Virus record (IMG/VR): IMGVR_UViG_2565956720_000009
DNA: 37,373 nt
Source of the DNA: a virus
Taxonomy: Duplodnaviria; Heunggongvirae; Uroviricota; Caudoviricetes
Strand: one strand, 5' to 3'
Shown in pieces: positions 2,809 to 35,185 of the stretch. Made by a program: the position numbers and the translations under genes. The notes under the pieces were generated by a model that ran no database searches, had not been told where the DNA came from, and worked only from the letters and a program-made list of their open reading frames with translations. The first letter of the stretch is position 1; every line of letters starts with the position of its first letter.

Positions 2809-2809
2809 C

Positions 2810-5091: not shown

Positions 5092-5103
5092 GGCGTAACA
5101 GGG

Positions 5104-8091
5104 ATGAGCTTAAGCGATCAGGTGGTAATGGCCACCAGCATAGAAACGCTGATCGAGCTGCTAAAAAACCTGCCCAATTACGGGCGGGTTTCGTATGTGG
5201 TGACAGCGAAGGGAGACGAGGTAAAAACAGCGTTTGATATCGTCGATGCCTCAGCTCTTTTGGTATCCAATACTCTGGACGGGAAAATTAACCCTGACTA
5301 TCCCCAGGAACTTCAGCCGCGCGACCGGACCCGCGCATCCAGTCTTCTTCAGGTCAACCAGATATCCAAGGATTTGCGTCCTGCCCAGCTTACCGATTCC
5401 GGTTTATCCAGCCATGGCGCGCCGATAATTGGTGAGGACAATGCCGTTGAGTCAGGTAATGGACGGACCATGGGGATCATCAAAGCCTATCAGGACGGCA
5501 ATGCGGATCGGTATCGTGAGTACCTGATTGATCATGCGACCGAATTCGGCATACGACCTGAAAAGGTTGAATCAATGGCGGCTCCGGTACTGGTGCGCCG
5601 CCGGTTAACTAAGGTTGACCGCGTTCAGTTTGCCAAGGACTCAAATATTTCTGATCTTCAGGAAATGGCAGCCAGTGAAAAGGCTTTTGTTGATGCTGAC
5701 AGCATAACTCCGGCGATGATGGCGCTGTTTAACCCATCAGAAAGCGGAGATCTGCTTAGCCGCAGTAATGACGCGTTTATTCGCGGATTCATGACGCAAG
5801 TTGGTGCCACACAGGCTGCTGGCCTTGTAACGGAAGATGGGCGACCAACACGGCAACTTGTAGACCGTATACAAAACGCGATCTTTGCCAAGGCATATAA
5901 GGATGCGCGCCTGGTAAGGATGGTTGCAGAAGAACCTGATCCGGATATGCGTAATGTTCTGACGGCGCTTAATGCGGCAGCCAATGATTTTGTCCAGATG
6001 CAGGCTTTATCAGGAGAAGCGCACAAGCAGGCTGTGACAACTATTGTTGATGGCATTGAGACAGCGGATAGCCTCGATAAAAAGGCGCTGGCGGCATTGA
6101 AAGATGCGGTAGACCTGGTAAGGCAATCGAAGGAGTCAGGCCAGCATATTACCGATGTTATTGCTCAGGGGGATATGTTCAGCGAAACGGCCCCGGAAGT
6201 GAAAGCACTCGCGTTGTTCATCGTCGCGAATAACCGTAGCGCGAAGCGTATGGCCACCGCCTTTAAGTTGATGGCTCAACGTATCAATGATGAGTTACAG
6301 CACCAGGGCCAGGCGCTGGGGGATATGTTTGGCGGCGGCGATGTGTCGTTACAGGATATCCTTCGCCAGGTGTCTCAGGAACTGGAAAACGAAGGCATGC
6401 AAGGGATATCCGGCGGTCTTTTCGAGTCCGTTTCCGGCGGTAGTTACAACGGTGTTGCTCCGTATACCAGTTTGCTATTACATCGGGCATCCGGCATCAA
6501 AGACATTATTCATCTGATCAGGCTGCTTTCCCGCACAGATCCCCAGGATGAACAGCTTGTACAAGTGCTTGCGCATTTTGTTCGAATGCCTGTTGCCGAC
6601 GTGAAAAAATGGTGCCGATTATTCGGTATCAGCAATTCGTTACTTCGCGGCTTGTTAAATCACGCATCCTCCCTTGGGCGCGATGGCTTTGACGAGATAG
6701 CGCAGGCGATAAAAAACGGAGATATGCCACCAGCTATTGACTGGTTTTCCATTCGCCCAACCAGGGTGAAAGCATTCCTTAGCGCGGCGCATTCGGCATC
6801 ACCATTGGCAGAAATGGTTCAGAGGTTGTCGCTCATATTCACAGACCATACCGCGTTGGGTGATCTGACTCTGGACGAGATGAAAGAAGCCTCCATTCAG
6901 TGGGCCGATCAACAAAATGAGGTTAACTCTGACTTCTTGCCAGCATTCAGGAAGGCCGTTAGTAAAGCTGATGATGCCCGTGGAATTCTGAAGGCATTTA
7001 AGGCATTGCAAAGTCAGGTTAATAAACATGTCGGTGATATCGATGGGGTAACGGCGGAAGGCAGGGATATCCTTAAAGAGCACGGCATAACGCCAGAGTT
7101 TATTGATGAGATCAGGACGGATATGCAGCGTGAGGTCGTATCGTCCCTGCAAATCGTAGCCAGAGCGTTGGCGGATGCTAATCCGAAGAGTGCGGCCATT
7201 GTTAACCGTGTTATTGGTGATATTGAAGCATCGGAGGGCATGGGGGCGCTGAAACTCTTCCTTTCGCGAGCGTTTAATCCTAACGGCAATATTCTCCCCG
7301 ACATTATTGGTGAGGCTAAAAAGTATGTCAGCGAAGAAGAACTTGAGCATCTTGACCAACTACTTAAGCGATTCTCATATAACCCGCAGACACGCTGGCA
7401 AATGAATCAGCGAAGTATGGGTTCGGTCCACGAGAAAGTGTTATCTGCCATGAATAGTGCGATAGCCAACTCATCCGTATCTGAAGAAAAAGCTCTTGAG
7501 TGGGCCGACTCTTTTATCACGGAAGAAGTGGAAGAAGCCCGCGCTGGACAGAGTGGTGGGATAGACCTGCGCAAGGAACTTGCTGATATTTATCGCCTGA
7601 CCGGCGGGAAAATATCGACCTTATCAAAGGTGGTTCACCACCAGGGAAGGGCATATGCAAATCTTAATGGTGTTGTTGCTGTCAATTTGAACGATGAAAA
7701 TGCAAGTGCACTGTGGCACGAGCTGGGTCATCATCTTGAGTACAGTAACCCTGGTTTGTTAGAGAAAGCCCGGTCATTCCTGAAGGCCAATGTTGAAGGG
7801 GATAAGCCATCTTTCGTTAATATCGGTGGGCGTGGCAAGCCTGAATGGTGCTTCAGATCTCGATTGAGTAATATTTATATGGCGAAGGTATACCCGCCAG
7901 CCTCAGTAAGTAACACCGGGAAAATTCGGCAGAAATCACCGACTATTTCCAAAACGTCAGCAACGGAAGTATTCTCTATGGCTCTTCAGTTGTATCATGA
8001 CAAAGAGGCCGCTGCCGCATCACTGATGAATGGTGACGGATTGCTGGAACTGTTATTAGGTGTGGCAAAGGAGCTAAATAATGCAGATTAA
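5104..8091 (+). CDS. ddrB: DdrB-like large internal head protein (dar operon)
   Basis: 995-aa ORF following ddrA; size and position match recalled P1 DdrB. Confidence 0.6.
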   Translation: MSLSDQVVMATSIETLIELLKNLPNYGRVSYVVTAKGDEVKTAFDIVDASALLVSNTLDGKINPDYPQELQPRDRTRASSLLQVNQISKDLRPAQLTDSGLSSHGAPIIGEDNAVESGNGRTMGIIKAYQDGNADRYREYLIDHATEFGIRPEKVESMAAPVLVRRRLTKVDRVQFAKDSNISDLQEMAASEKAFVDADSITPAMMALFNPSESGDLLSRSNDAFIRGFMTQVGATQAAGLVTEDGRPTRQLVDRIQNAIFAKAYKDARLVRMVAEEPDPDMRNVLTALNAAANDFVQMQALSGEAHKQAVTTIVDGIETADSLDKKALAALKDAVDLVRQSKESGQHITDVIAQGDMFSETAPEVKALALFIVANNRSAKRMATAFKLMAQRINDELQHQGQALGDMFGGGDVSLQDILRQVSQELENEGMQGISGGLFESVSGGSYNGVAPYTSLLLHRASGIKDIIHLIRLLSRTDPQDEQLVQVLAHFVRMPVADVKKWCRLFGISNSLLRGLLNHASSLGRDGFDEIAQAIKNGDMPPAIDWFSIRPTRVKAFLSAAHSASPLAEMVQRLSLIFTDHTALGDLTLDEMKEASIQWADQQNEVNSDFLPAFRKAVSKADDARGILKAFKALQSQVNKHVGDIDGVTAEGRDILKEHGITPEFIDEIRTDMQREVVSSLQIVARALADANPKSAAIVNRVIGDIEASEGMGALKLFLSRAFNPNGNILPDIIGEAKKYVSEEELEHLDQLLKRFSYNPQTRWQMNQRSMGSVHEKVLSAMNSAIANSSVSEEKALEWADSFITEEVEEARAGQSGGIDLRKELADIYRLTGGKISTLSKVVHHQGRAYANLNGVVAVNLNDENASALWHELGHHLEYSNPGLLEKARSFLKANVEGDKPSFVNIGGRGKPEWCFRSRLSNIYMAKVYPPASVSNTGKIRQKSPTISKTSATEVFSMALQLYHDKEAAAASLMNGDGLLELLLGVAKELNNAD

Positions 8092-8391: not shown

Positions 8392-8424
8392 AAATCCCGC
8401 CAATCGGCGGGATTTGTTGTTTAT
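8392..8424. terminator. bidirectional rho-independent terminator between convergent genes
   Basis: Perfect 10-bp stem AAATCCCGCC/GGCGGGATTT with a 4-nt loop followed by GTTGTTTAT; lies between the stop of the dar operon and the stop of the HipA-like gene. Confidence 0.7.
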
Positions 8425-9725
8425 GCCAGGCGGGCTATGCGTATCTTACAATCATCTAGGTGGATGCGTAGCGCTTCTAAACATGGAGTAAAGTTAGCTG
8501 AGAATTTGTCGGACTCACAGGCCAATGCATAAAATTTTTCAGCCAATTCAAGAGATTCATCCCATATTTTTCGACTTACAAAGTCTGGTAGTGCTGTTTT
8601 TCTAAGCTCATTAGATATTGCTCCCCCAGAGCGTGGAGCAAAACCCATAGGTAACATGTCATAGGCTGGAGCAATATGATATGGGCGTCCGTGGCTACTA
8701 ATAAACGATAGGTTACCATTATGCATATCGGTATTGCCTATTAGCAAACCAAAAGACCATAGCCTTGTTGCTATAATAATCGCATCAGGATGGACGCACT
8801 TATTTTTTACCAACTCTTTAACCAGCAAGGGCCATGTTGCTCTTGCATTCCCAACAAATTCTGCATCAAGTGCACGAAGTGAGAATACACCTACCCGACC
8901 TAGTTGACCAACACGATCAAATCGGGGAATTTCCAAGAATCTCTGACCGTTATAATCAAAAACTTCTGTTTCTACCCCCAGAACTTTTAATGCGAGATGT
9001 TCAGCAAACAAGAGATCTCTCCAACGCTCACTTATAGGGGTGTCGTTAGGCGCAGAGAATTTCACTAATACATGTCCACGCTCTGTGAAAGTACAAAATT
9101 TGGGTTGTTCACCTCCAGCAGATGAACCGGGCACATCACCTTCACCAGCAGCTAAAGCTAATACAGGATATTCACTTTCACGATTAACAGGAACAGGAGG
9201 CTGCATCTCTAAAAAATGCGTGCGTGCTTGCTCTCCAATTAACAAATTACCAACAACATCATGCCCATGCTTAAGTAAGGCTTTGATCACGTCAGTATCT
9301 GACCATTGCTCTGGATTTGAGGGAAGGTTAAGTTCAAGAGCATATGCTGATGCATATGCTCTTCCAAGGAAGCCTTGTGGACGCATATCAAATAACCACC
9401 AAGGTAACCCATCGCTATGCCTGTTATTTTTCCCTTCCTCAACCATAACATAGCCTTCTGGCCTCACCGGAATGAGAGTACCAAGAACGCAAATACACCC
9501 CTCTTCAGTTATACGATAAATGGGGACTGATTCGAATCCTCTAAAAGAGTCTCGTAAAGCATATTGAATAGATCTTCCATTTCCGATCCTAACGATTTCA
9601 TCACCAAGATCTCTTAATGCTCTAGATATCGTTGGTTGGCTAACACTTAGTCTTTCAACCAATTGTCTTGGTGTCATAGGACCTTGATTGAGCAAATTAC
9701 GGATTGTTGTTGCATGTATAGCCAT
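8421..9725 (-). CDS. HipA-family Ser/Thr kinase toxin with N-terminal HTH domain (YjjJ/HipH-like)
   Basis: 435 aa from the ATG at 9725 (MAIHATTIRNLL...). N-terminal HTH (MTPRQLVERLSVSQPTISRALRDL); P-loop-like SAGGEQPKF; catalytic-loop-like LIGNTDMHNGNLSF; APAYDMLP motif. AT-rich relative to flanking phage genes. Confidence 0.85.
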   Translation of the reverse strand: MAIHATTIRNLLNQGPMTPRQLVERLSVSQPTISRALRDLGDEIVRIGNGRSIQYALRDSFRGFESVPIYRITEEGCICVLGTLIPVRPEGYVMVEEGKNNRHSDGLPWWLFDMRPQGFLGRAYASAYALELNLPSNPEQWSDTDVIKALLKHGHDVVGNLLIGEQARTHFLEMQPPVPVNRESEYPVLALAAGEGDVPGSSAGGEQPKFCTFTERGHVLVKFSAPNDTPISERWRDLLFAEHLALKVLGVETEVFDYNGQRFLEIPRFDRVGQLGRVGVFSLRALDAEFVGNARATWPLLVKELVKNKCVHPDAIIIATRLWSFGLLIGNTDMHNGNLSFISSHGRPYHIAPAYDMLPMGFAPRSGGAISNELRKTALPDFVSRKIWDESLELAEKFYALACESDKFSANFTPCLEALRIHLDDCKIRIARLA

Positions 9726-9742
9726 AGTTTTAATTACTATTG

Positions 9743-9771
9743 TGAATAGATTAATGAATAGATTCATGAAT
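9743..9771 (-). promoter_or_regulatory. direct-repeat array (TGAATAGATT x2 plus partial third copy), candidate operator upstream of the HipA-like gene
   Basis: TGAATAGATT at 9743 and 9755 and TGAAT at 9767 (12-bp phasing), 18-46 bp upstream of the kinase start codon. Confidence 0.3.
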
Positions 9772-9829
9772 GCGTACAATAGCAAGCAAAACGGGAGGTG
9801 TCACTAATTTAGGTAAGTTAAAAAGACTT

Positions 9830-9836
9830 CTTTAAA
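9830..9836. repeat. target-site duplication (left copy) CTTTAAA
   Basis: Identical 7-mer CTTTAAA directly abuts both IS termini (9830-9836 and 11038-11044). Confidence 0.7.
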
Positions 9837-11037
9837 TGTATTAGTCGCGACTTGATCTGACACTGAGCCTTGAAAGGTTGAGAGTTACCGGTTTTGATAT
9901 GGGTGTCTAATCCTTATACAAAACACGAGGTAACTCTCATGCTTCATACTAACAATCCCATCATCAAACACAAAGTCGGTCTGCTCAACCTCGCCGAAGA
10001 ACTCGGTAACGTATCAAAAGCCTGTAAAATCATGGGGGTGTCACGCGACACATTTTACCGCTATCAGGAACTGGCTGAGGAAGGCGGTATTGATGCTTTG
10101 GTTAATCAGAACCGCAGAGTCCCGAACATAAAGAACCGTGTCGATGAAGCGACTGAACGTGCAGTTGTTGAGTACGCAATTGAGTTTCCGGCTCATGGGC
10201 AGCACCGGACCAGTAATGAACTGCGTAAGAAAGGCGTATTTATCTCCGGCAGCGGCGTACGCTCCATCTGGCAACGACACGACCTGGAGAACTTCCGTAA
10301 ACGTCTGAAAGCACTTGAAGAAAAAGTCGCCAGAGAAGGGATCGTACTCACTGACGCTCAAATCGCAGCGCTAGAAAAGAAAGCCCAGGATGATGAGGCC
10401 AACGGTGAAATCGAAACGGCACATCCGGGGTATCTGGGGTCACAGGACACCTTCTACGTGGGCAACCTGAAAGGTGTTGGCCGTATCTATCAGCAGACGT
10501 TCGTGGATACGTACTCGAAAGTGGCACACTGCAAACTATATACGAGTAAAACGCCGATCACCGCAGCTGATTTGCTCAATGATCGTGTACTGCCGTTCTA
10601 CGAGTCTCAGGGGCTGCCGATGCTGAGAATCATGACCGATAGGGGAACAGAGTACTGTGGTAAAGTTGAGCAGCATGATTATCAGTTGTATCTGGCTATC
10701 AACGACATTGACCATACGAAAACGAAGGCGATGTCTCCGCAGACGAACGGCATCTGCGAGCGCTTCCATAAGACCATTTTGCAGGAGTTTTATCAGGTTA
10801 CGTTCCGTAAAAAGCTATATACAAACCTGGAAAGCCTGCAAATGGATCTGGACAAGTGGTTGTGGCATTACAATAATGAGCGAACTCATCAGGGAAAAAT
10901 GTGCTGTGGGCGTACGCCAATGGAAACGTTACTTGATGGAAAACGCATCTGGGCCGAGAAAAATTTAAGCCAGATGTAATCTGACAGATACCTGTATAAA
11001 TAACCGGTAACTGTCAGATCAGGTCTGAGCTAATACA
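9837..11037 (+). mobile_element. intact insertion sequence (about 1.2 kb, single DDE transposase; IS481-family-like)
   Basis: Imperfect 27-bp terminal inverted repeats TGTATTAG...TGATCTGACA at 9837-9863 and 11011-11037 (ends TGT...ACA); single transposase ORF; flanked by 7-bp direct repeat CTTTAAA. Confidence 0.85.
9939..10979 (+). CDS. IS transposase (N-terminal HTH plus rve-type DDE integrase core)
   Basis: 346 aa from the ATG at 9939 (GAGG RBS); N-terminal HTH region (VSKACKIMGVSRDTFYRYQ) followed by an integrase-core-like C-terminal region ending ...YNNERTHQG; family assignment by architecture only. Confidence 0.85.
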   Translation: MLHTNNPIIKHKVGLLNLAEELGNVSKACKIMGVSRDTFYRYQELAEEGGIDALVNQNRRVPNIKNRVDEATERAVVEYAIEFPAHGQHRTSNELRKKGVFISGSGVRSIWQRHDLENFRKRLKALEEKVAREGIVLTDAQIAALEKKAQDDEANGEIETAHPGYLGSQDTFYVGNLKGVGRIYQQTFVDTYSKVAHCKLYTSKTPITAADLLNDRVLPFYESQGLPMLRIMTDRGTEYCGKVEQHDYQLYLAINDIDHTKTKAMSPQTNGICERFHKTILQEFYQVTFRKKLYTNLESLQMDLDKWLWHYNNERTHQGKMCCGRTPMETLLDGKRIWAEKNLSQM

Positions 11038-11044
11038 CTTTAAA
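11038..11044. repeat. target-site duplication (right copy) CTTTAAA
   Basis: See left copy. Confidence 0.7.
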
Positions 11045-11106
11045 AGATGATGACTAGGCGCTTTAACTGCTAGCTGACATAACAATTGGCCATTTGACGT
11101 GGAGTT

Positions 11107-11129
11107 CCCCGCCAACTGACGGGGTTTTT
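11107..11129 (+). terminator. rho-independent terminator (plus strand) just outside the IS right end
   Basis: Stem CCCCG/CGGGG with an 8-nt loop followed by TTTTT; would stop plus-strand read-through leaving the IS. Confidence 0.45.
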
Positions 11130-16426: not shown

Positions 16427-19400
16427 ATGAACAAGCTATCTATGGGGGTGTTTCGCTGTTCAAGTGTCAGCGAAATATTGAAATACATTAGGGCAATAAC
16501 ATCTCACCGAGCGCCGATTAGATACGGCGTGGAAAAGGTGGAAGGCAAAAGCTATGACCGACTACGCCGGGAGGCGAATCAGAAGGCGATAGATTTGCTT
16601 AATTCGCTGGTGGACGGCGCGACACTGACAGATGAACAGCGCCAGATCCTGGCTGGGTACACCGGCGAAGGCGGCATTGGCGGGTCCGTCTCCGAATATT
16701 ACACACCAAAGCCGATCGCTGAAGGTGTCTGGGAGATCATGAAGCTCTACGGCGCGGACGTAGGTAACACTCTGGAACCATCGGCGGGAACCGGCGTTTT
16801 TAATGAGACAAAACCGGTTGGTACGGTGATGACCGCGACTGAGATCAGCAGTGTTTCCGGTCGTATAAACCAGCTGTTGCACCCGGAAGACAGCGTACAG
16901 ATTTCTCCGTTCGAACAACTGGCTGTAAGCACGCCTAACGATTCATTCGACCATGTTGTGGGTAACGTTCCGTTCGGTGGTCGTGATAACACACGCAACA
17001 TCGATAAGCCTTACGCAGAAGAAACGGACATGGGTTCTTACTTCATGCTCCGCATGCTGGACAAGATAAAGCCAGGCGGATTCATGTGCGTGATTGTGCC
17101 GCCGTCCATTGTTTCAGGTTCAAACATGAAGCGGTTACGCCTGCGCCTATCACGGAAAGCTGAATTTCTTGGTGCCCACCGCTTGCCTACCGGTACTTTT
17201 GACGCTAACGGGACCAGTACGGTCGTAGATGTGGTGCTGATGCGCAAACATCCGGCAGAGATGGCTGAGAAAATCCCCCTGGTGGATGAAAGCACTCTCG
17301 AATCGGCAAATGTGCTTTGGCCAACGTTTATTTCTGGCAAGTGGTTTGAAAAGGACGGTCGCCGGTTTGTTCATGGCACCCAGGAGAAGGGATTCCAGGG
17401 GCGTATTGAGGTTCGTGCCGACGGGCAGATTGATAACCAGGCTCTTAAAGCGAAGCTGATTCATCGTTTCGAAAGTCGTATCGACTGGTCTTTGCTCAAT
17501 ATGGCTGAACCGTCACCGACCGCAGACGTTGTTGATGAAGGGGAAATGCGCCTGATTAATGGCGTATGGCAAAAATATGCTGGTGGTCGCTGGATTGAAT
17601 CTGATGCAGGGAAGGAGCTGAAGATTGATGTTGCCAGTTATGGCGCGGACAGCTGGGAGGCTCTTCAGCGTAACCTGACTACAACAGAAGGCCGTCTCGG
17701 TATGACATTTACCCAGATGGCAAATGTCCGCGATAAATACACCACATCAATCAGCGACGATATGGTGCAGCTGGTGGACTGGATTAACAGCCAGCCTGAA
17801 AAATACCGTGAACGCTTGTATCGCGGGGCGATGATTGGCCGGATGTTAATTGAATATCAGGACATGAAGGCCGCCGGGCATAGTGCTGAACAAATCGAAC
17901 AGCAGCGCCTTTCTCTGGTATCCCGTTTGCAGGCAGAGATTGACCGTTTTGGTAACCCCGGTCGCGGTCCGATAGCGAAATTATCGGGGAGCGGTGCGCG
18001 CGCCTGGTTTGCTTTCCGTGGTGCAATTAAGCTGGATGGCACTATTTCTGACGAGCTGACAGGAAAACTGGTTACGCATGATTCCAGCGCCAGTTATGAC
18101 TCCACCAGCTATCAGGACACCCTGCGTTATCTCTACAGTGATCTCACTCGCGATCCAATCCAGCTCGATGATTTCCGCCTTGCGTTTACCGGCGAACTGC
18201 CAGCCAGTGATGACGAGTTGCTTAATTTATTGGCCAGCACCCCTGGCATTGCGGTTTCACCGTATGGCGGGATTTTTCCGTTCGCCCGCGCCACCAGCGG
18301 CGACATTAACGAGATAGTGGCACCAAAACAGGAATTCCTTGCCACACTCCCCGACGGTCCAGTAAAGAACAACGTCCTTAATCAGCTGGCAGCTATCGAA
18401 GAGAAGCGCATCAAGACGCCAGCAGAGAATATCCGGTTTAAGCTCAATAGCCGTTGGTTCGACCGTTCCGTCATTCTGGAATTTTTGCAGGAAAACGGCT
18501 ATCCGGATCTGCGCTATGTGCAGTCAGTGCAGCTGGAAGGCGACGAAATGGTTTCTGACACCTATCACGGTGGTGATGGTCTGTTCGTCGGGCACCGATA
18601 CGGTGTCGTCCAGCGCAAGGATAAAGAAACAGGTGAGATTCGCTACGAGTGGGACCGTAAATCAGGTGAAAACGCGACCGGGTTCCCGGCGCAGCTGGAA
18701 AAGTATCTCAATGGTGCGCGTATCGGTGGCAAAGATAGCGCGACGGCGAACGGCTACCGCGAGCAGATGGCACTGCTTGAGGACCAGTTCAATAAGTGGA
18801 TCAAGACGCACGATCGCTACGATGAGCTGGTTGCCAAATACAACGATGTGTTCAATAGCAATATCCCGTATGAACACTCTGGCGATCCGCTTGGGTTGAA
18901 GGGATTAAGCGGTAAGCGCCAGCCATTTGATTACCAGAATAGCGAGGTGCGCCGACTGTCCGAAGATGGGCGCGGCATCCTGGGCTTCGGCACCGGGCTG
19001 GGTAAAACCACGACCGCGCTGGCGCTTGAGGCGTTCAACTATGAGAACGGTCGCTCCACCCGTACTGCGTATGTAGTGCCTAAATCAGTGCTGGAAAACT
19101 GGTATTACGAAGCAAAAGAATTCCTGAGTGAAGAGGCATTCAGTAACTACCTGTTCGTCGGTCTTGATGTGCTGATGGATGGCGATCAGATTCGCCAGGT
19201 GCAGGTGCTCGATGAGAACGGTAAACCTGTTCTTGGTACTGATGGCACTCCAGTTATGCGCGATGCTCTTAAGCTGGCAGATGAAGCCACTATCACGGCG
19301 CGGATGAACGCGATCCCGCACTCAAATTACCGTGCAGTCGTGTTTACCAAAGAACAATACGCCCGCATTCCGCTACGTGATGACACCGTAGATGAGCATG

Positions 19401-22400
19401 CACAGGATATGCTTTATGACTTCGTTGCCGCCGGACGCGTAGCCAGCGCAATGGACTCCGACTCCCACCGCAAAGAGGCCGCGCGTCGCCGGGTATTGTC
19501 GGAGTATTCAGATACCGGCACCGAAAAAGCAGAGAAGTATCCGTACTTTGAGGATATGGGCTTCGATAGTGTGATCGCTGACGAAGGTCACAACTACCGC
19601 AATAGCTATAAAAATGGTCGCGAAGCGTCACAACTGGCCTATCTGCCCACCAGCGCGGTGGCGCAATCGGCGCGAGATATGGCAATTAAAAACGCGTACC
19701 TGATGAAAAAGAATGGTGGGCGCGGGCCGGTTCTCCTGACTGCAACGCCAGTCGTTAACACCCCGATCGATGCATACAACATGCTTTCTCATGTTCTGCC
19801 GAAGGAATACTGGCAGAACATGGGGATCTACGGTCCTGATGACTTCGTTAAATTCTTCGGCAAGACCAGGCTGGAAACGGTACAGAAAATTAGCGGTGAA
19901 GTTGAAGAAAAAATGGCGCTGGTGGGCTTTGAAAACCTTGATGCGCTGCGCGGTATATTCCATCGCTGGGTAACGCTTAAAACGGCGGAAGACGTTAAGG
20001 ATACCGTGGAGATCCCGGAGCTGGACGAACACCAGCAGGATGCACCACTTACTGAAGAACAACTGGCGGCGTATGAAGAATTGCGTCAGCAGGCGGAAGC
20101 GGCGGCCAAAGCCAACAATGGCGTAACGACCTCGGTCAATGAAGACGGCGTGATTGAGCACGAGAAAGCCCGTCCGATCTTCTCAATAATCAGGGATATG
20201 GACCGCGTATGTACTGACATGGACCTGTACTATCGCCGGATCACCTATCGTTTCCTGCCGGAGTACGCCGATGCGGTGCAGCAGCTGGCGGACAGTTTGC
20301 CTAAACAAGCCACCAGCGAAGACGACGACAGTGATGATTCAATCACGCAGCAATCGCAATACTCCCTGATAGATAAGGGCGAGTTTATTCAGTTGCAGGT
20401 TCCGGAAGCGTTCGAGCAGGAAGTGAATAAGCGCCTGGCCAGGTTTGGCATTGACGAACAGACCGTAACTCACCCCGTTACGCCCAAATACGCGAAGCTG
20501 ATTGCCACGCTGAAGGAGTTTTTCCCGGAAGGTAAGCAAATCATCTTCACCGATGAAAAAACGCAGCACCAGAAGCTCAAGCGCATTATCTGCAATGCTC
20601 TTAACCTTGAACCTTCAAAGGTGGGGATACTGAATGCTCAGACGGTTGCCGAGGCAGGTAAAACCGGTAAGAAACTGAAAGCGGTTAAACCGCCGAAAGA
20701 GTTACCGGATGAACCAACAGATGCACAGATAGCGAAATACAACGAGCAAATGGCTCTGTATGACGCCTATATCGCGCAGCAAAATGAAATGTCGTTGGGC
20801 GGTCTGGAAAAGATTGCAGCCGACTTCCAGGAGGGCCGGACTCCGATCATCATCTGCAACAAAAAGGCAGAGGTGGGTATCAACCTGCATCGAGGAACGA
20901 CTGACATCCATCATCTGACGTTGCCATGGACTCCAGCCAGTATTGCGCAACGAAACGGTCGCGGTGCCCGAGTTGGCTCCAACCGTGCAAGCGTTCGCGT
21001 TCACTACTACTGCGGCAAGGGGTCTTTCGATGAATACCGACTGAAGACGCTGAAGCGTAAAGCAGGCTGGATCTCCGATATCCTCCGTTCAGATAAGTCA
21101 GAAATGGAGAACGCCGACGCCAACGATATGATCGAAATGCAGATGTATACCGCGAAGGATGACGGCGAACGTCTGGCAATGATGCAGGTTCAAATGGATA
21201 AGGCGAAAGCTGCGAAACGCGCTCGCCAGAAAGAACAGGCTACTATCGACCTTCAGAACTACATCAAGGCGCAGCACGCAGCTGGTGAGGATGTGGAGGT
21301 ACTTACCGCTGAATTGGAGCGAAGCAAAGCGGAACTTGAAAAGACCACCGCCGACGTCGCCAAATTCAAACAGGCGGTAATGGCCAAAGCAGCTGATAAC
21401 GCAGACTGGAAAGCCCGCTGGGGTAGCGTCCATCACACAGACCGTATGTTGTTAGCACAGTATCGCGCGTCGTTGAAAAGCGCCATTCAGCGCAAGGCTA
21501 ATATCTCTCAGGCCATCTCCCGCTATGAGAAATTATTGAACCGTACTCAGAAGGCCGCGACGGATATCAAACGCCTGCGCCCGCTGGTGGAGGATGCAAT
21601 AAATAAAGGCATTCTGGATGTTGATCCTGATCTGGTTAACCATGCGAATGAGTTCCTTGTTATCGGCGATCGCTCATGGCGTGTAGGCCAATACTATGAT
21701 TGTGCCGGTGATATCGTTCGCATTAAGTCGCTGGACTTCGACAGCCAGCGCGCAGACGTGGAGATCATCTTTACCTTCAAAGGCACCAAATCGGGTAACT
21801 GGGATGTGAAGACGCTGGATAAACAGGTTGATGTAACTCCCGATGAAGATGCTGTTATGCAGAAAATCAGTGGTGGCGTCTCCATCGCCGGGATTAACGA
21901 CATCGTTTCCTGTGACGATTTCTACCGTTTCCAGCAGCGCGGCATGATCAAAATCACTGACTCATACGGCGTTCAGACTACAGAGTCAGGCTATAGCATT
22001 GATTTTGTTGGTACCTATACGGACCCACTGAAGCATGCGGTTTACCCGGATCGCCGTGACGGCGCGCTGAAGTCGTCAATTGCAAAATGGGTGCTTGGTA
22101 TGATGTCGGAAGGGAATAACCGCCAGATCCGTTCGGCAGAAGCATTCCTGGTTGAACTGTTTGGCTCCAATTATGGCGATGTAATCGCGTCATACGGAGA
22201 TACGCTATCCCCTGAAGCAATTCAGGAGAAAATAGCGGATGCGATCGCCAGAATGCCGGAGAAAACAAGCCAGGGGGCTACTCGTAACGGGGATTCTGAA
22301 CTTGAAGTCACCAATGCCATTTTCGGTACCAATGAGTTCCGGGCGTCAGATTATGAGATCACCACAGCACAGTTTGGCACCATTGGCATTTACAGCAATA

Positions 22401-23194
22401 AAGCCGAGATCAAGCAGGCAATGGACGCAGCAAGCGCGCGCATCGCAGCAGAACGGGAAGCCAATCTGAATCATGCAGTCGCCGCGCTGACTCAATCGTG
22501 GGTAACAGCAATCAGGGAGGCCGCCACCACAGGGAAAATCACACCTGCAATAGCGGATGTCGTAAACGACGGCTCTAAATTTATGGATGCCTATCAAATG
22601 GATGCGGTGAAGTTGCCATCAGCCTATGGTCAACTCAGCTATCGCATGACCTACAACCTGGTATCAATGTTTTCCGACCTTGCCATCCTTGGGCTGGTGG
22701 ATCTTAACGAGGTTACGCCGGAATTGCTCAGCATGCGCAAGAATCATGTGGAGATATTGCAGAGAATTAACACGGTTCTTGCCGGGCGCACCGATGAAGA
22801 GAAACAGGCCGACGCTGATCGGATAAACCTGGCCCTTGGCAACATCACGGAGGAAGAGATTGCCGCCAGAAACGAGAAACAAGAAGAGTTATCATCAATA
22901 CAGGGTGATGCCACCAGCATAGCTCAGTCTCTTGGTCTGAATTATCGCGTATCCACCGCCGACCTGAAGATGATGTACGCACCAAAATTCGCCGCTGGCG
23001 AGGTATTTGGGCTTCAGGAAGCCTCAGGCATGAAAGGCGTTCTTTTCCGTGCGAAAGACGCAATCAAGGCGAAATTCGGCGCTCGCTGGCTGCCAGCGAA
23101 GGCGAAGAACAGCGATTTCCCGGGTAACTGGTGGATTATCGAGACAAAACACAACGTGGCGGACGTTCTGGCCGTCATCCAACAATACGCATAA
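16427..23194 (+). CDS. darB: DarB-like giant antirestriction protein (N6-adenine methyltransferase plus SF2 helicase domains)
   Basis: 2255 aa, the length recalled for P1 DarB; N-terminal MTase motif I (EPSAGTGVF) and motif IV-like (VVGNVPFGG); helicase Walker A (GFGTGLGKTTTA) and DExH-like (ADEGHNYRN). Confidence 0.9.
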   Translation: MNKLSMGVFRCSSVSEILKYIRAITSHRAPIRYGVEKVEGKSYDRLRREANQKAIDLLNSLVDGATLTDEQRQILAGYTGEGGIGGSVSEYYTPKPIAEGVWEIMKLYGADVGNTLEPSAGTGVFNETKPVGTVMTATEISSVSGRINQLLHPEDSVQISPFEQLAVSTPNDSFDHVVGNVPFGGRDNTRNIDKPYAEETDMGSYFMLRMLDKIKPGGFMCVIVPPSIVSGSNMKRLRLRLSRKAEFLGAHRLPTGTFDANGTSTVVDVVLMRKHPAEMAEKIPLVDESTLESANVLWPTFISGKWFEKDGRRFVHGTQEKGFQGRIEVRADGQIDNQALKAKLIHRFESRIDWSLLNMAEPSPTADVVDEGEMRLINGVWQKYAGGRWIESDAGKELKIDVASYGADSWEALQRNLTTTEGRLGMTFTQMANVRDKYTTSISDDMVQLVDWINSQPEKYRERLYRGAMIGRMLIEYQDMKAAGHSAEQIEQQRLSLVSRLQAEIDRFGNPGRGPIAKLSGSGARAWFAFRGAIKLDGTISDELTGKLVTHDSSASYDSTSYQDTLRYLYSDLTRDPIQLDDFRLAFTGELPASDDELLNLLASTPGIAVSPYGGIFPFARATSGDINEIVAPKQEFLATLPDGPVKNNVLNQLAAIEEKRIKTPAENIRFKLNSRWFDRSVILEFLQENGYPDLRYVQSVQLEGDEMVSDTYHGGDGLFVGHRYGVVQRKDKETGEIRYEWDRKSGENATGFPAQLEKYLNGARIGGKDSATANGYREQMALLEDQFNKWIKTHDRYDELVAKYNDVFNSNIPYEHSGDPLGLKGLSGKRQPFDYQNSEVRRLSEDGRGILGFGTGLGKTTTALALEAFNYENGRSTRTAYVVPKSVLENWYYEAKEFLSEEAFSNYLFVGLDVLMDGDQIRQVQVLDENGKPVLGTDGTPVMRDALKLADEATITARMNAIPHSNYRAVVFTKEQYARIPLRDDTVDEHAQDMLYDFVAAGRVASAMDSDSHRKEAARRRVLSEYSDTGTEKAEKYPYFEDMGFDSVIADEGHNYRNSYKNGREASQLAYLPTSAVAQSARDMAIKNAYLMKKNGGRGPVLLTATPVVNTPIDAYNMLSHVLPKEYWQNMGIYGPDDFVKFFGKTRLETVQKISGEVEEKMALVGFENLDALRGIFHRWVTLKTAEDVKDTVEIPELDEHQQDAPLTEEQLAAYEELRQQAEAAAKANNGVTTSVNEDGVIEHEKARPIFSIIRDMDRVCTDMDLYYRRITYRFLPEYADAVQQLADSLPKQATSEDDDSDDSITQQSQYSLIDKGEFIQLQVPEAFEQEVNKRLARFGIDEQTVTHPVTPKYAKLIATLKEFFPEGKQIIFTDEKTQHQKLKRIICNALNLEPSKVGILNAQTVAEAGKTGKKLKAVKPPKELPDEPTDAQIAKYNEQMALYDAYIAQQNEMSLGGLEKIAADFQEGRTPIIICNKKAEVGINLHRGTTDIHHLTLPWTPASIAQRNGRGARVGSNRASVRVHYYCGKGSFDEYRLKTLKRKAGWISDILRSDKSEMENADANDMIEMQMYTAKDDGERLAMMQVQMDKAKAAKRARQKEQATIDLQNYIKAQHAAGEDVEVLTAELERSKAELEKTTADVAKFKQAVMAKAADNADWKARWGSVHHTDRMLLAQYRASLKSAIQRKANISQAISRYEKLLNRTQKAATDIKRLRPLVEDAINKGILDVDPDLVNHANEFLVIGDRSWRVGQYYDCAGDIVRIKSLDFDSQRADVEIIFTFKGTKSGNWDVKTLDKQVDVTPDEDAVMQKISGGVSIAGINDIVSCDDFYRFQQRGMIKITDSYGVQTTESGYSIDFVGTYTDPLKHAVYPDRRDGALKSSIAKWVLGMMSEGNNRQIRSAEAFLVELFGSNYGDVIASYGDTLSPEAIQEKIADAIARMPEKTSQGATRNGDSELEVTNAIFGTNEFRASDYEITTAQFGTIGIYSNKAEIKQAMDAASARIAAEREANLNHAVAALTQSWVTAIREAATTGKITPAIADVVNDGSKFMDAYQMDAVKLPSAYGQLSYRMTYNLVSMFSDLAILGLVDLNEVTPELLSMRKNHVEILQRINTVLAGRTDEEKQADADRINLALGNITEEEIAARNEKQEELSSIQGDATSIAQSLGLNYRVSTADLKMMYAPKFAAGEVFGLQEASGMKGVLFRAKDAIKAKFGARWLPAKAKNSDFPGNWWIIETKHNVADVLAVIQQYA

Positions 23195-23227
23195 CAGGAG
23201 CGCCCGGTTCGCCGGGCGTCGCATAAT

Positions 23228-23668
23228 ATGGCCACACTATCTGATACAATAAAACCGAATAAAACATATCTTGAGGCGGTACTCCGTACAGCGTTGTTAG
23301 GAAAGACAGAAGACGAATACGTTGATTTCTTCCTGTCAGGGCTACGCGGGCGATTACTGAAAAATCCCCGCCTGTACCGCAGCTATGGTCCATACTGGCC
23401 GGAAATTAAAAAATTATTACTGGAGCGCGGTTATGGTAATTTCGGTCGTCTCGTTGACCGTGACGTTCGCAAAATTTACCGTTATGACCGCCCGGCGCTA
23501 ACACTCATAGCCGCGACGCTCTACAGCCAGGAGCGTTTTGATAATGGTCAGATATACTCAGCCTGGCATTTACTGCCAGTGCCTGAAGAAGTTGACGACC
23601 AGGACTATGAGTTTGAGTCTTACGATTTGGAAGTTGAAGCCTTGGCACAGGCTGGAGAGAAAACTTGA
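23228..23668 (+). CDS. ulx: Ulx-like protein (downstream partner of darB)
   Basis: 146-aa ORF directly after darB and overlapping the next ORF; assignment by synteny with recalled P1 darB-ulx-lxc. Confidence 0.5.
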   Translation: MATLSDTIKPNKTYLEAVLRTALLGKTEDEYVDFFLSGLRGRLLKNPRLYRSYGPYWPEIKKLLLERGYGNFGRLVDRDVRKIYRYDRPALTLIAATLYSQERFDNGQIYSAWHLLPVPEEVDDQDYEFESYDLEVEALAQAGEKT

Positions 23669-23913
23669 AAAAGCGATACTACACAGTAAAGCATGGGACG
23701 CTACGAGCATTACAAGAGTTTGCTGATAAGCATAACGTTGAGGTGCGCAGGGAAGGGGGAAGTAAAGCTCTGCGCATGTACCGTCCGGACGGGAAATGGC
23801 GTACGGTCGTCGATTTCAAAACTAACAGCGTTCCCCAGGGCGTCCGCGACCGGGCATTCGAAGAATGGGAGCAGATCATCATAGATAACGCATTGCTCCT
23901 GAATGCTGATTAA
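23665..23913 (+). CDS. lxc: Lxc/Bof-like C1 co-repressor
   Basis: 82-aa ORF with TTG start and GGAGAG RBS; P1 bof/lxc is recalled to start at TTG; position upstream of the res/mod-equivalent slot. Confidence 0.5.
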   Translation: MKKRYYTVKHGTLRALQEFADKHNVEVRREGGSKALRMYRPDGKWRTVVDFKTNSVPQGVRDRAFEEWEQIIIDNALLLNAD

Positions 23914-23921
23914 ATCTTTGG

Positions 23922-23946
23922 CTATGCCTGGCTAAGCCAGGCATAG
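23922..23946. terminator. hairpin between convergent lxc and toxSAS genes (probable bidirectional terminator)
   Basis: Perfect inverted repeat CTATGCCTGGC-TAA-GCCAGGCATAG; only modest U-tracts on either side. Confidence 0.5.
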
Positions 23947-23950
23947 GAAT

Positions 23951-25081
23951 TTACACAGTATCAATGTGTCTGCTAAGGAATCTCCCGAACTGATTTGTTG
24001 ACCCAAAATAGTTAGGATAAGCCTTTTTAAGAGATTTAATGTTGTTAGTGGCAAGCAGCACCGCAATTAATACTTCAGGATCCGCATCATCCTTATTAAG
24101 TTCCTGGAGGGCTTGTTCCGATTCTTTTTTCCTAAAAGGTTTCACAGAAACAAGAAACTTTCCAGTATCCTTGCCATTTTTTGTTATGGCGTTTCTCATC
24201 CTCACCAAAAAGAATCCATTATGGTTTTTGGGCAGGCTTTTCTTTAGGTTTGCATCTGATGTCAGCTTCATTGCAAATGTATATGTACTTAATTTTGAGC
24301 GAACAGATAAAGCCTCCTCCAATGTTTTAAGCTCTGTTTGATAATTTTTGATGGTTTCATCATCAAGAATACAGGCACCTTCATCATGAGCAACTAGGCA
24401 TCCAGAAAGATAAAAAAATCTTCTCCACTCAGGGTGACCTTCATTAGAAGTTTTCAGCTTAATATTTTCAAGTGTATCTATTATCTCCAGACTTGTTGCC
24501 CAAGCATGTTGGAGTTCTGTTCTTAGTTGTACTTCGATTTTAGTTTTACTCCACGGATTGTTACCGTTTTCTTCATCAAAACAACTATATGCAAGGTGAA
24601 TGCCACTATATCCGCTTGGCTTTGGAGTTAAATAGTCATATTCCTTTAAGATTTTATGCTTGGAGCGACTTTTAACTAGTCGGTCTTTTAGTTTCTTTAG
24701 TTGTTCGATGTTTCTAACTATAGCTCTACATCCGCCAATATCCTGCATTCTAGTAAGGGCTATTGCATTATTTGTTGCGCCGCCGTCAAGACTTGGACGC
24801 TCCAGTTTATCAATTATTGTGCTAAGTCTTTTTAGGCGTCTTGCAACAATAATCTTATTCTCTTTATCAACTTTTTTTGCAGCCCTATCAAGATGATTTT
24901 TCATTAGCATCAATGGATATAAATGAAGCTCGCGGAAATTTTGAATCATTTTAATTGCTTCTTCTCGCTCTGCGCCCTCACAACCATGTCTAATTTTTCT
25001 GGCTGCTTTTTCTATTTGAGATTTCGAATATTTAAGTTCGCATTTTTGGCTTTGATATACTTCACTGCCCATTACTAACAT
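23951..25081 (-). CDS. RelA/SpoT-homologue synthetase-domain protein; fused toxSAS toxin-antitoxin (CapRel-like)
   Basis: Synthetase motifs ARRLKRLSTIIDKLER, DIGGCRAIV, GYSGIHLAY and EVQLRTELQHAWA in the N-terminal half, plus a ~170-aa C-terminal extension. Monocistronic and AT-rich. First ATG at 25081; alternative ATG at 25072 gives 373 aa; the track ORF begins at a TTG at 25090. Confidence 0.85.
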   Translation of the reverse strand: MLVMGSEVYQSQKCELKYSKSQIEKAARKIRHGCEGAEREEAIKMIQNFRELHLYPLMLMKNHLDRAAKKVDKENKIIVARRLKRLSTIIDKLERPSLDGGATNNAIALTRMQDIGGCRAIVRNIEQLKKLKDRLVKSRSKHKILKEYDYLTPKPSGYSGIHLAYSCFDEENGNNPWSKTKIEVQLRTELQHAWATSLEIIDTLENIKLKTSNEGHPEWRRFFYLSGCLVAHDEGACILDDETIKNYQTELKTLEEALSVRSKLSTYTFAMKLTSDANLKKSLPKNHNGFFLVRMRNAITKNGKDTGKFLVSVKPFRKKESEQALQELNKDDADPEVLIAVLLATNNIKSLKKAYPNYFGSTNQFGRFLSRHIDTV

Positions 25082-25137
25082 CCAGTTCAAATGATTAATG
25101 TGTTGTTACATATAATAACAAATCAAGCTAGAAATCA

Positions 25138-25164
25138 ATGGGTATGAAAATGAAACATACCCAT
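25138..25164 (-). terminator. hairpin downstream of mat / upstream of toxSAS gene
   Basis: 9-bp perfect inverted repeat ATGGGTATG-N9-CATACCCAT followed on the minus strand by a T-rich stretch; could terminate mat and insulate the toxSAS promoter. Confidence 0.4.
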
Positions 25165-25184
25165 AATGTTACCTAACGTAACTA

Positions 25185-25826
25185 TTATAAATAGTTCTGT
25201 TTACCTGTTAATTCTCCTTGCGGCACTTGTTTTTGCGTTAGTGTTTGAGTTCCGCGAATTATGTTAATCAGGGGACTTAGTAATGATGGTTCCTGATGGG
25301 CCTCAACTTCTCCAGCCATTGCCCTGATGTAGTCGGCGCTGGCAACGTTGTTGTATTCCGTCGCAAAGCAACATAGTAACGTCAGAACATGTTCTGTCGT
25401 TATTTCGCTCCAGTTGATGTTGAAAAATTCATCGCCTTTTTTATCGTGTTCGGAATCGAAGATGCTTTGGTGAAGGATGTATTTGCCGGATTCCTTGCGC
25501 GGTAACTTGATCGCTTTCTGGCGTTCCAATTCCTTGTAAATCTGCATTGCTTCAATCAGTACCGGTCTGCCGTTCATGAAGGGATCATGCAACCTTACAC
25601 GCTGGCCAACTCGACCGGTAATAAAGCTGTTTTCCTCTTCCACCAGCACGATAAAACCCTTTTCCTCTTTTTCTCGCAATTCGCGCAGCAGCTGGAGTTC
25701 CATATCGCGGCGGCGTTCAGGGTAGCTGGTCCGCTCAGCCATTATCAGCTCATTGTTGATCCATGCAGCAGTCATTGACGCCGGTTTGCCGACGCTCATT
25801 GAAACAACGCATATTTTCTTATCCAT
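25185..25826 (-). CDS. mat: Mat-like protein (particle maturation control), assigned by position
   Basis: 213 aa from the ATG at 25826 (MDKKICVV...), downstream of ref as recalled for P1 cre-cra-ref-mat; no motif recognised. Confidence 0.45.
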   Translation of the reverse strand: MDKKICVVSMSVGKPASMTAAWINNELIMAERTSYPERRRDMELQLLRELREKEEKGFIVLVEEENSFITGRVGQRVRLHDPFMNGRPVLIEAMQIYKELERQKAIKLPRKESGKYILHQSIFDSEHDKKGDEFFNINWSEITTEHVLTLLCCFATEYNNVASADYIRAMAGEVEAHQEPSLLSPLINIIRGTQTLTQKQVPQGELTGKQNYL

Positions 25827-25837
25827 AGCGCCCCTAC

Positions 25838-25865
25838 AAAAAAGAAAAGCCACCAGCGGCGGCTT
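25838..25865 (-). terminator. rho-independent terminator between ref and mat
   Basis: On the minus strand AAGCCGCC-GCT-GGTGGCTT followed by TTCTTTTTT, ending about 12 nt before the mat start codon. Confidence 0.55.
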
Positions 25866-26014
25866 AGCAATACAACTGAAGGTAGCGCCCGGTACTCAGA
25901 CTGTGCCGTCCATGGAATATTTGAAAAGGGATCCATCCGTACCGGGCGTGTGATGATTCTGACTCAAGTCACTTGTCAGTTGTCAATCATTTAAGATTAA
26001 AAATAATATATTTA

Positions 26015-26575
26015 TTAGTGCATGATGTTTGCCATTTCATAGGCGTCAGCCAGCAACTCCATCTCTGACTTGTTCAACAAGGTGAATTCTTTCTTGCCTC
26101 CTACCACGCCATCTGCATGAACAGGGACCAGCCAAGGGTATTTTTCTCTTACTTCAGCCGGTGCTGCATGCTGGTGGTGCCATCTGCAAAGGGGCAATTG
26201 CTTTTTGTGACAACCCGGCGCGGTACGACCGGAGATATGGTGCAGAGACACCTCTTCAGATATTACTCCATGCATGTAGCAGGCAATGCAGGGGAGAGTG
26301 CCAAGAGCATTGGCGATGGTCCGTTCCTCCGCCGTCGGTGTTCGCCCCTTCAAGCCACGAGATTTTATTTTTACCGCACTTTTCCGCGTTTTGCTGGCTG
26401 GTGGGCGCTCTTTCTGTTTAGCGATACGGCGGTCGATAGAATCCCGCATTTTCTGATATTGCGATTCTCGCCAGGCGGGGTCAGCCAACTTTTCCCGTTG
26501 CCGAGCGATCGCTCGTTCTCTGGCTGCCTTCTGCCACTCGCGGCGCTGTTCAAGTTTTTGTTCGATTGTTTTCAT
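26015..26575 (-). CDS. ref: Ref HNH endonuclease (recombination enhancement function)
   Basis: 186 aa from the ATG at 26575 (MKTIEQKLEQRREWQKAARE...); C-terminal HNH-like Cys/His cluster (CIACYMHG...HHISGR...CHKKQLPLCRWHHQH); matches recalled P1 Ref. Confidence 0.9.
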   Translation of the reverse strand: MKTIEQKLEQRREWQKAARERAIARQREKLADPAWRESQYQKMRDSIDRRIAKQKERPPASKTRKSAVKIKSRGLKGRTPTAEERTIANALGTLPCIACYMHGVISEEVSLHHISGRTAPGCHKKQLPLCRWHHQHAAPAEVREKYPWLVPVHADGVVGGKKEFTLLNKSEMELLADAYEMANIMH

Positions 26576-26673: not shown

Positions 26674-26690
26674 CAATCAATTAGAGCAAT
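26674..26690 (-). promoter_or_regulatory. C1 operator-like site (Op2-like) upstream of ref, with an adjacent degenerate second copy
   Basis: Reverse complement ATTGCTCTAATTGATTG (14/17 to consensus); next to it ATTGCTATAATT on the same strand, which also contains a TATAAT -10-like hexamer. Confidence 0.55.
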
Positions 26691-34804: not shown

Positions 34805-35185
34805 CTACTCCGCAGAACCATACAATCTACGTAACGTGTCGGCGACAGAAGATACAGATATCTCGCCAGTCGCAGCGCCTACGGTAAGGTCTGCCAGTTC
34901 AGGTGAATCAAATACCTGCACCCCGTTACGGCGTAGAAATAGCAGCGCACTGTTTAGCGCGGTACGCTTATTGGCATCATTGAATATATGCCCTCTCGCT
35001 GTAGCCACCAGGTAGGTGGCGGAGACTTCGAAAAGGTCGGTGATCTCTTCGTAGGCAACTCTGGCCTGAACTCTCCCGATAATGGCCTCTGCCCTACCCG
35101 GATCAGACATTCCCGGCAGGCCGCCGTAGCGGCTTATATTCGCATCATGAAGCGCAACAAGTTCTTCCGGTGATATATGTCTCAT
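34805..35185 (-). CDS. doc: Doc toxin (Fic-fold kinase), death on curing
   Basis: 126 aa, [25 protein letters not shown]...; Fic-like [11 protein letters not shown] motif; 1-nt TAATG overlap with phd. Confidence 0.95.

Follow-up and report, generated by a model that had tools for sequence, protein, structure and literature searches.

capRel-SJ46 as a one-gene cassette between mat and lxc of a P1-like phage-plasmid

In phage P1, the EcoP1I res and mod genes lie between mat and lxc. What, then, is the single AT-rich gene that occupies this position in a related element, and what does it do there? The gene was found in a 37,373-nucleotide stretch of viral DNA (IMG/VR record IMGVR_UViG_2565956720_000009; called the window below), and its product contains a RelA/SpoT synthetase domain. 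An earlier note, drawn from the sequence alone, had assigned it to the CapRel class of fused toxin-antitoxins and had judged it probably a member or variant of a known system rather than a new one. That judgement was sound, and the match is closer than was supposed: the encoded protein is identical, residue for residue, to a characterised one. The gene is almost certainly capRel-SJ46 itself, the founding fused toxSAS toxin-antitoxin anti-phage system, present here as the only gene of a cassette that fills the slot between mat and lxc in a P1-like phage-plasmid.

The gene is already known, and nothing in the gene itself is new. Its discovery value is correspondingly small: no anti-phage toxSAS has been studied more than CapRel-SJ46, for which two crystal structures and two triggers are known, and the presence of CapRel in P1-like phage-plasmids is already documented. 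The sections below treat the gene and its protein; the published behaviour that identity brings with it; the signals that flank the gene and its probable working in this element; and the slot in which it sits.

Identity of the gene and its product

The encoded protein matches two solved structures: PDB 7ZTB_A, with 373/373 residues identical to the encoded protein (E 1.6e-250); and PDB 9ERV_A, with 372/372 (E about 1e-250). According to the data statement of PMC11578894, 9ERV is the complex of CapRel-SJ46 with Gp54 of Bas11, and 7ZTB is the earlier structure. A 2026 preprint also cites 7ZTB as CapRel-SJ46. The protein likewise matches PADLOC PDC-S33 (E 5.1e-87).

At the DNA level, positions 23200-26043 (2,844 bp), which include the whole region upstream of capRel, are 99.93% identical to Salmonella phage SJ46 (NC_031129). 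The two mismatches are at 25037, a synonymous difference in codon 12 of capRel, and at 25588, in mat. The cassette, its lxc and mat flanks, the upstream region and both flanking hairpins are the same as in SJ46, where CapRel-SJ46 is gp058 (YP_009293515.1; Zhang et al., Nature 2022 and 2024). No evidence contradicts the identification as capRel-SJ46, and the gaps concern native context only.

The gene is an open reading frame on the minus strand that ends in a TAA stop at 23953-23951. Its longest reading begins at TTG 25090 (379 aa). The earlier note had placed the end of the gene at 25081, where an in-frame ATG would yield 376 aa; the accepted start is instead ATG 25072, which yields 373 aa, is used by RefSeq and the published work, and alone reproduces the published numbering of R79, R116 and Y155. 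The capRel coding sequence is accordingly placed at 23951..25072, minus strand (373 aa plus stop; WP_001749390.1 / YP_009293515.1). The Shine-Dalgarno sequence ahead of ATG 25072 is weak, and the in-frame alternatives at 25081 and 25090 lie just upstream. The gene is annotated at the same place in SJ46 and in the E. coli plasmid p1303_95; the SJ46 annotation of the equivalent 1,122-nt CDS reads 'RelA/SpoT family protein'. GC3 is 0.29 in capRel versus 0.58 in darB.

The set of small-alarmone-synthetase motifs reported earlier was found in full: DIGGCRAIV at residues 111-119; GYSGIHLAY at residues 154-162; and EVQLRTELQHAWA at residues 180-192 (all in the 373-aa numbering). The sole Pfam domain matched is PF04607 RelA_SpoT (E 3.1e-13; 50.4 bits against a cut-off of 27). 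This match stops at about residue 193, and ~180 aa remain after it. Solved small alarmone synthetases (RelP, RelQ, YwaC/YjbM) show distant similarity to the core, with E from 2e-7 to 2e-4 over about residues 65-201, and leave 170-180 further residues uncovered. The C-terminal extension of ~170 aa claimed for the protein thus holds as the length beyond the synthetase match, but the antitoxin and sensor fragment is shorter, at ~100 aa (residues 273-373, PMC9712102).

With the fragment boundaries of PMC9712102, residues 1-272 (24257..25072, minus strand) form the toxic N-terminal fragment with the toxSYNTH (RelA/SpoT) pyrophosphotransferase domain, the part matched by PF04607. Residues 273-373 (23954..24256, minus strand) form the antitoxin and sensor, with the pseudo-zinc-finger, the anchor helices and the YXXY motif. 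The catalytic residues, whose absence had been named as grounds for abandoning the CapRel reading, are all in place: R79, R116 and the G-loop residue Y155. So are L280, L307 and the YXXY motif itself (Y352-P-N-Y355); the roles of all these residues are those defined in PMC9712102. The trigger-contact residues L280 and L307 fall within fragment 273-373, and the full C-terminal region is the same as in the crystallised protein.

A separate antitoxin gene, which the earlier note had also failed to see, was sought between lxc and mat: the 1,271-bp cassette contains no independent open reading frame of at least 20 aa, and all others overlap capRel. Judged by its sequence, the protein is a fused CapRel, having every defining feature of the class that a sequence can test. 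It is not a housekeeping small alarmone synthetase, defined as a stand-alone enzyme of ~210-255 aa that makes (p)ppGpp and has no fused antitoxin.

Published behaviour of CapRel-SJ46 and its relatives

Because the protein is identical to the characterised CapRel-SJ46, the published mechanism and triggers apply to it. Work on this very protein already covers the toxicity of the N-terminal part, rescue in trans, phage challenge and docking of the C-terminal domain (PMC9712102). Fragment 1-272 is toxic, fragment 273-373 supplied in trans neutralises it, and full-length CapRel-SJ46 is harmless without a phage trigger (PMC9712102). In the closed state predicted by AlphaFold, the pseudo-zinc-finger domain covers the ATP site and the YXXY motif is placed between R79 and R116. 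This model of autoinhibition is backed by substitutions in the YXXY motif and in interface residues; the 2.3 Å crystal structure of CapRel-SJ46 represents the open state (PMC9712102).

The specificity of the trigger had been thought unreadable from the sequence. Through identity it is known: Gp57 of SECphi27; the major capsid proteins of Bas5 and Bas8; and Gp54 of Bas11. The pseudo-zinc-finger domain is the binding site of Gp57, the SECphi27 major capsid protein, which is both necessary and sufficient for tRNA pyrophosphorylation in vitro and for the block of cell-free translation (PMC9712102). Escape mutations map to L114 and I115 of Gp57 and to the equivalent region in Bas8 (PMC9712102). The capsid proteins of Bas5 and Bas8 are triggers, but that of Bas4 is not, owing to Y113 (PMC9712102). 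The second trigger, the small and unrelated protein Gp54 of Bas11, binds the same domain (PMC11578894).

Defence by CapRel-SJ46 lowers the plating efficiency of T2, T4, T6, RB69 and SECphi27 by 10- to 1,000-fold, and is lost in the Y155A mutant (PMC9712102). These assays were made with the gene on pBR322 or as a single copy in the chromosome (PMC9712102). Variants of L280 lose the response to SECphi27 but keep protection against T2 and T4 (PMC9712102). Protection against T4 was seen solely at low multiplicity of infection, and the authors consider abortive infection probable (PMC9712102). For infection by T2, T4, T6 and RB69, the published CapRel-SJ46 work names no trigger (PMC9712102, PMC11578894).

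Several relatives share the toxSYNTH fold and tRNA pyrophosphorylation: CapRel-Ebc of Enterobacter chengduensis; PhRel/ATphRel of mycobacteriophage Phrann; and FaRel2 (PMC9712102). PhRel and FaRel2 have their antitoxin as a separate gene, unlike CapRel-SJ46, and the C-terminal region of the fused CapRel proteins is homologous to the separate antitoxins of bicistronic toxSAS (PMC9712102). Identity between CapRel-Ebc and CapRel-SJ46 is 70% over the whole protein but 47% over the C-terminal region. CapRel-Ebc protects against T7; a 2026 paper reports that it senses Gp0.4 by a route in which FtsZ takes part.

Expression signals and working in this element

The gene had been credited with its own promoter region, and a good candidate is present. 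At 25184..25211 on the minus strand (read 25211->25184) stands TTAACA-16 nt-TATAAT, a sigma-70 promoter-like site that matches the consensus at 11 of 12 positions. Its -35 hexamer falls in the last mat codons and its -10 hexamer overlaps the mat stop, so that the leader would be ~105 nt. The claim is weaker for the region as a whole, which contains three promoter-like sites against 4.6 expected from shuffled sequence and thus shows no excess. Possible promoters 3' of the leader hairpin described below were considered and rejected: two TTGATT hexamers, read by eye, have no acceptable -10 at 16-18 nt and are weaker than the site at 25211->25184.

The sequence of the 25211->25184 site is identical upstream of capRel in SJ46. 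For native expression, 100-200 bp of the DNA ahead of the gene was placed in a vector that lacked a promoter, and this native region gave functional expression both from that vector and from a single chromosomal copy (PMC9712102). Since the DNA upstream of capRel is the same as in SJ46, the native-expression sequence is present in the window. From its consensus match, the 25211->25184 site is probably the capRel promoter in the lysogen.

These observations bear on the idea that capRel is a silent passenger, intact yet unexpressed in this element. A silent gene would fit a promoter known only by consensus match, a weak ribosome-binding site and a hairpin in the predicted leader. The coding sequence is nevertheless intact, its upstream region is identical to the SJ46 region that drove functional expression, and the allele is at least 99.7% conserved across plasmids of E. 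coli, Salmonella and Klebsiella. Silence is therefore very improbable.

Hairpins had been noted on both sides of the gene, and both are confirmed. The leader hairpin, in the mat-capRel intergenic region (25138..25164, minus strand), is a perfect inverted repeat whose 9-bp stem closes a loop of 9 nt and is followed by a U-rich tail. Its fold has z = -4.9 in a 65-nt context, and it may serve in termination or attenuation of read-through from mat. The downstream hairpin lies at 23922..23946, where lxc and capRel converge with 37 nt between them, and is a perfect palindrome of two fully complementary 12-nt arms, 1 nt apart. Its 11-bp stem closes a 3-nt loop; in a 56-nt context the folding energies of the two strands are -23.9 and -23.6 kcal/mol (z = -5.3 and -4.4), and neither strand shows a clear U-tract. 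RCS47 and P1 have other sequence at this position, so the downstream hairpin belongs to the cargo and not to the backbone.

The two hairpins were also considered as canonical intrinsic terminators, and this assignment was rejected. A scan for intrinsic terminators with a loop limit of 8 nt, which the upstream loop exceeds, called neither of them, and the downstream stem has no U-tract; any terminator role is putative. An Rfam search of 23600-25400 gave no match at E up to 1.

Control of capRel by the C1 repressor is likewise unsupported. The C1-operator 17-mer ATTGCTCTAATAAATTT, allowing up to 3 mismatches over the whole window, gave seven sites against 0.19 expected, none of them near the gene. 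The site nearest to capRel, at 26674-26690, is equivalent to the P1 ref operator. The absence of an operator nearby suggests that capRel expression in the lysogen is independent of the repressor.

The published mechanism of this very protein runs as follows. While no phage is present, the C-terminal pseudo-zinc-finger domain is folded back onto the toxSYNTH domain; Y352 and Y355 then lie between R79 and R116, and the ATP site is blocked. Upon infection, a phage protein that has just been made binds the pseudo-zinc-finger domain and keeps the enzyme open. Pyrophosphate is then transferred from ATP to tRNA, and translation halts. Phage yield drops, with protection at low multiplicity of infection only, which the authors take as probable abortive infection. 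For this element in particular, the likely source of capRel expression in the lysogen is the promoter-like site overlapping the mat stop, and the carrier population, hence the resident prophage, would be shielded from unrelated lytic phages.

The prediction for a lysogen of this element is resistance to SECphi27, Bas5, Bas8 and Bas11, and partial resistance to the T-even phages. It matters when phages are chosen to treat or to type such strains. That the element's own capsid might act as a trigger found no support at the sequence level: a tblastn search with SECphi27 Gp57 against the complete close relative p1303_95 and the window gave no homologue (best E 0.5).

Might the main native role instead be plasmid addiction through post-segregational killing, with phage defence secondary? 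The setting is suggestive, for this is a toxin-antitoxin on a low-copy plasmid prophage, and 15 of the 15 E. coli copies found are on plasmids. Toxin and antitoxin, however, form one polypeptide, which leaves a mechanism of labile antitoxin and stable toxin without an obvious basis, and the untriggered full-length protein is not toxic (PMC9712102). Moreover, the element already has a phd/doc pair (a 126-aa open reading frame of the window, 34805-35185, aligns to doc of p1303_95, with phd adjoining), and many P1-like elements have no capRel at the mat-lxc slot. Addiction is about as improbable as silence, and anti-phage defence is much to be preferred.

Least credible of all is that the gene encodes an ordinary small alarmone synthetase, making (p)ppGpp or (p)ppApp and acting by nucleotide signalling rather than tRNA modification: the database labels 'GTP pyrophosphokinase' and '(p)ppGpp synthetase' and the remote resemblance of its core to solved RelP, RelQ and YwaC/YjbM (E from 2e-7 to 2e-4) point that way, but the identical protein, once triggered, pyrophosphorylates tRNA and blocks cell-free translation (PMC9712102), a later (2026) preprint sets CapRel-SJ46 against an alarmone-producing toxSAS and notes a positively charged tRNA-binding pocket, and the housekeeping enzymes, at ~210-255 aa, carry no fused antitoxin domain. 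These two labels, and a third in public records, 'RelA/SpoT domain-containing protein', miss the function of the protein, and the identification as capRel-SJ46 has its value for annotation here.

The mat-lxc slot and its cargoes

The cargo cassette is the 1,271 bp (23914..25184) between the stop codons of lxc (23911-23913) and mat (25185-25187); it replaces the res/mod genes of P1 and a 39-nt spacer of phage RCS47. Its junctions were read base by base in alignments to RCS47 and P1. Homology to these two ends at 23918/23919 on the left and at 25200/25230 on the right, and the best promoter-like site of the cassette lies across its boundary with the mat 3' end. The cassette had been described as clearly more AT-rich than the backbone; its GC content is indeed 0.366 versus 0.490 for the rest of the window, and it is the lowest-GC stretch of its size there.

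Both borders are backbone genes. The left border is lxc (bof), on the plus strand at 23665..23913, with 97.6-98.9% identity to P1 and RCS47 up to its stop. The right border is mat, on the minus strand at 25185..25826, in the 213-aa form also present in RCS47 and SJ46; it is annotated in SJ46, RCS47 and p1303_95. The C-terminal Mat peptide GELTGK(Q/G)NYL is common to the window and RCS47.

That P1 carries res-mod between mat and lxc, as the earlier note had said, was verified in NC_005856. The order there is mat (2716-3468, +), res (3544-6456, -), mod (-, interrupted by IS5) and lxc (9750-9998, -). RCS47, with 39 nt between the converging stops of lxc and mat, represents the empty site. EcoP1I res/mod and capRel thus share the mat-lxc position, and both are defence cargo of a prophage. 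They differ as follows: the proteins and their mechanism are unrelated; res/mod comprises two genes and about 5.1 kb (6.3 kb with IS5), against 1.27 kb for capRel; and capRel is transcribed in the direction of mat, whereas P1 res/mod is transcribed in the direction of lxc. The locus is a clean case of a defence cassette swapped against type III restriction-modification at a fixed prophage site.

The capRel-SJ46 allele is uncommon but widely spread. Of ~700 plasmid records with matching flanks, 21 carry it, and these come from E. coli, Salmonella and Klebsiella; among 5,426 complete E. coli genomes it is present in 14, on a plasmid every time. A second CapRel allele, WP_032313380.1, occupies the same slot in NZ_CP102949.1. 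It has the same architecture and orientation and also matches PADLOC PDC-S33 (E 5e-86), but its protein is only 75% identical, so its trigger specificity is not set by the SJ46 work. In vB_EcoM-673R5, the CapRel allele in the slot is annotated as two CDS.

Other genomes hold other cargoes at mat-lxc: a PIN-domain protein in JL22; a DUF2971 protein resembling PADLOC PDC-S31 in MH422554; and an AraC-type regulator with an EAL-domain protein in both Ro157c2YLVW and the P1 'del res del mod' isolate. Across the slot examples (res/mod, two CapRel alleles, others and empty), the flanking backbone genes are ~95-99% identical. It is possible, if on balance doubtful, that the mat-lxc junction is a sharply bounded exchange site between converging stops, which takes one cassette at a time and alternates between anti-phage cargoes; the examples behind this reading number seven or eight, against ~700 matching plasmid records. 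In a survey preprint, the main defences named for P1-like phage-plasmids are type III restriction-modification, dGTPase, PrrC and CapRel; it contains none of the words mat, lxc or 'variable region', and leaves the slot unmentioned.

The element as a whole is a P1-like phage-plasmid of a close E. coli type. From left to right, the window carries cin, lydB, the darA operon, ssb, pro, prt, darB (16427-23194), ulx, lxc and capRel; to the right of capRel follow mat, ref, c8, cre, c1, pacAB, lpa and phd/doc. SJ46 is excluded as the element itself. SJ46 has Tn1721 inserted beside mat, from the point that matches window position 26043, whereas the window has intact ref, c8 and cre. Likewise, darB is annotated as two CDS in SJ46 but is a single gene of 2,255 aa in the window. 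The nearest complete relatives are E. coli plasmids such as p1303_95 (CP009168), with 99.0-99.3% identity over most of the window. A second cargo site is present in the window at 8416-11129.

Cargo carried between mat and lxc

Among seven other P1-like genomes (L002, L003, L005 and L007 through L010), the stretch separating the stop codons of lxc and mat holds varying cargo. P1 itself (L002) carries the EcoP1I res/mod genes, and RCS47 (L003) has no cargo, only 39 nt. Elsewhere the slot holds one of two CapRel alleles, 100% and 75% identical, a protein with a PIN domain, a DUF2971 protein similar to the PADLOC family PDC-S31, or a pair comprising an AraC-type regulator and an EAL-domain protein. 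The slot appears to be a site for the exchange of single cassettes. In a survey preprint that lists defences of P1-like elements, the mat-lxc slot itself goes unnamed.

Escherichia phage vB_EcoM-673R5 also has a capRel homologue in this slot (L004:1277-2376); the annotation divides it into two CDS in succession, 543 and 549 nt long. The whole locus is about 90% identical to the window in DNA, and the split gene is either a frameshifted pseudogene or the result of a sequencing error.

Relation to SJ46 and to the published trigger

In Salmonella phage SJ46 (L001), the insertion point of transposon Tn1721 (tnpA, tnpR) coincides with the end of its identity to the window. This point, at 26043, is close to the 3' end of ref, which is uninterrupted in the window. 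SJ46 has two annotated darB CDS, whereas the window encodes a darB of 2,255 residues (16427-23194). Because ref is uninterrupted and darB spans 2,255 residues, the window represents the form without the SJ46 disruptions.

A published CapRel trigger is Gp57, phage SECphi27's major capsid protein. At the sequence level, tblastn detected no Gp57 homologue in the window or in its close relative, the complete E. coli plasmid p1303_95 (best E 0.5). This absence is consistent with a resident CapRel that would not be triggered by the capsid of its own element.

The capRel promoter-like site and C1 operators

The best promoter-like site for capRel (23951-25072, minus strand) lies at 25184-25211 and straddles the junction between cargo and backbone (mat end, 25185-25199). 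Its −10 element shares bases with the mat stop codon. Its −35 element falls within mat codons whose protein sequence is conserved with RCS47 (GELTGK[Q/G]NYL) and whose DNA has diverged. The P1 mat product is longer (250 aa), and the gene has a different 3' end.

Allowing up to three mismatches, the 17-mer operator of the P1 C1 repressor matches seven sites in the window (12631, 16481, 26674, 28712, 28795, 29259, and 33532), against 0.19 expected by chance. The match at 26674-26690 is the counterpart of the ref operator. All seven are more than 1.4 kb away from the promoter-like site of capRel.

Second site of variable cargo

Variable cargo also occupies window positions 8416-11129, where P1 has its IS1/isaA region, between ddrB and hxr/ssb. 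In the product of a minus-strand ORF of 454 aa (8421-9785), a winged-helix DNA-binding domain at the N terminus is joined to a HipA_C kinase domain (Pfam PF07804, E 3e-15; PDB HipT, E 8e-6). No PADLOC family matched this ORF convincingly; this HipA-like kinase, encoded by one gene, may be a further cargo of the toxin or defence type. Adjoining it is an rve-family transposase (9894-10979), which aligns to an RCS47 CDS annotated as an ISSod13-family transposase. At the corresponding position, p1303_95 carries an unrelated 1,091 bp.
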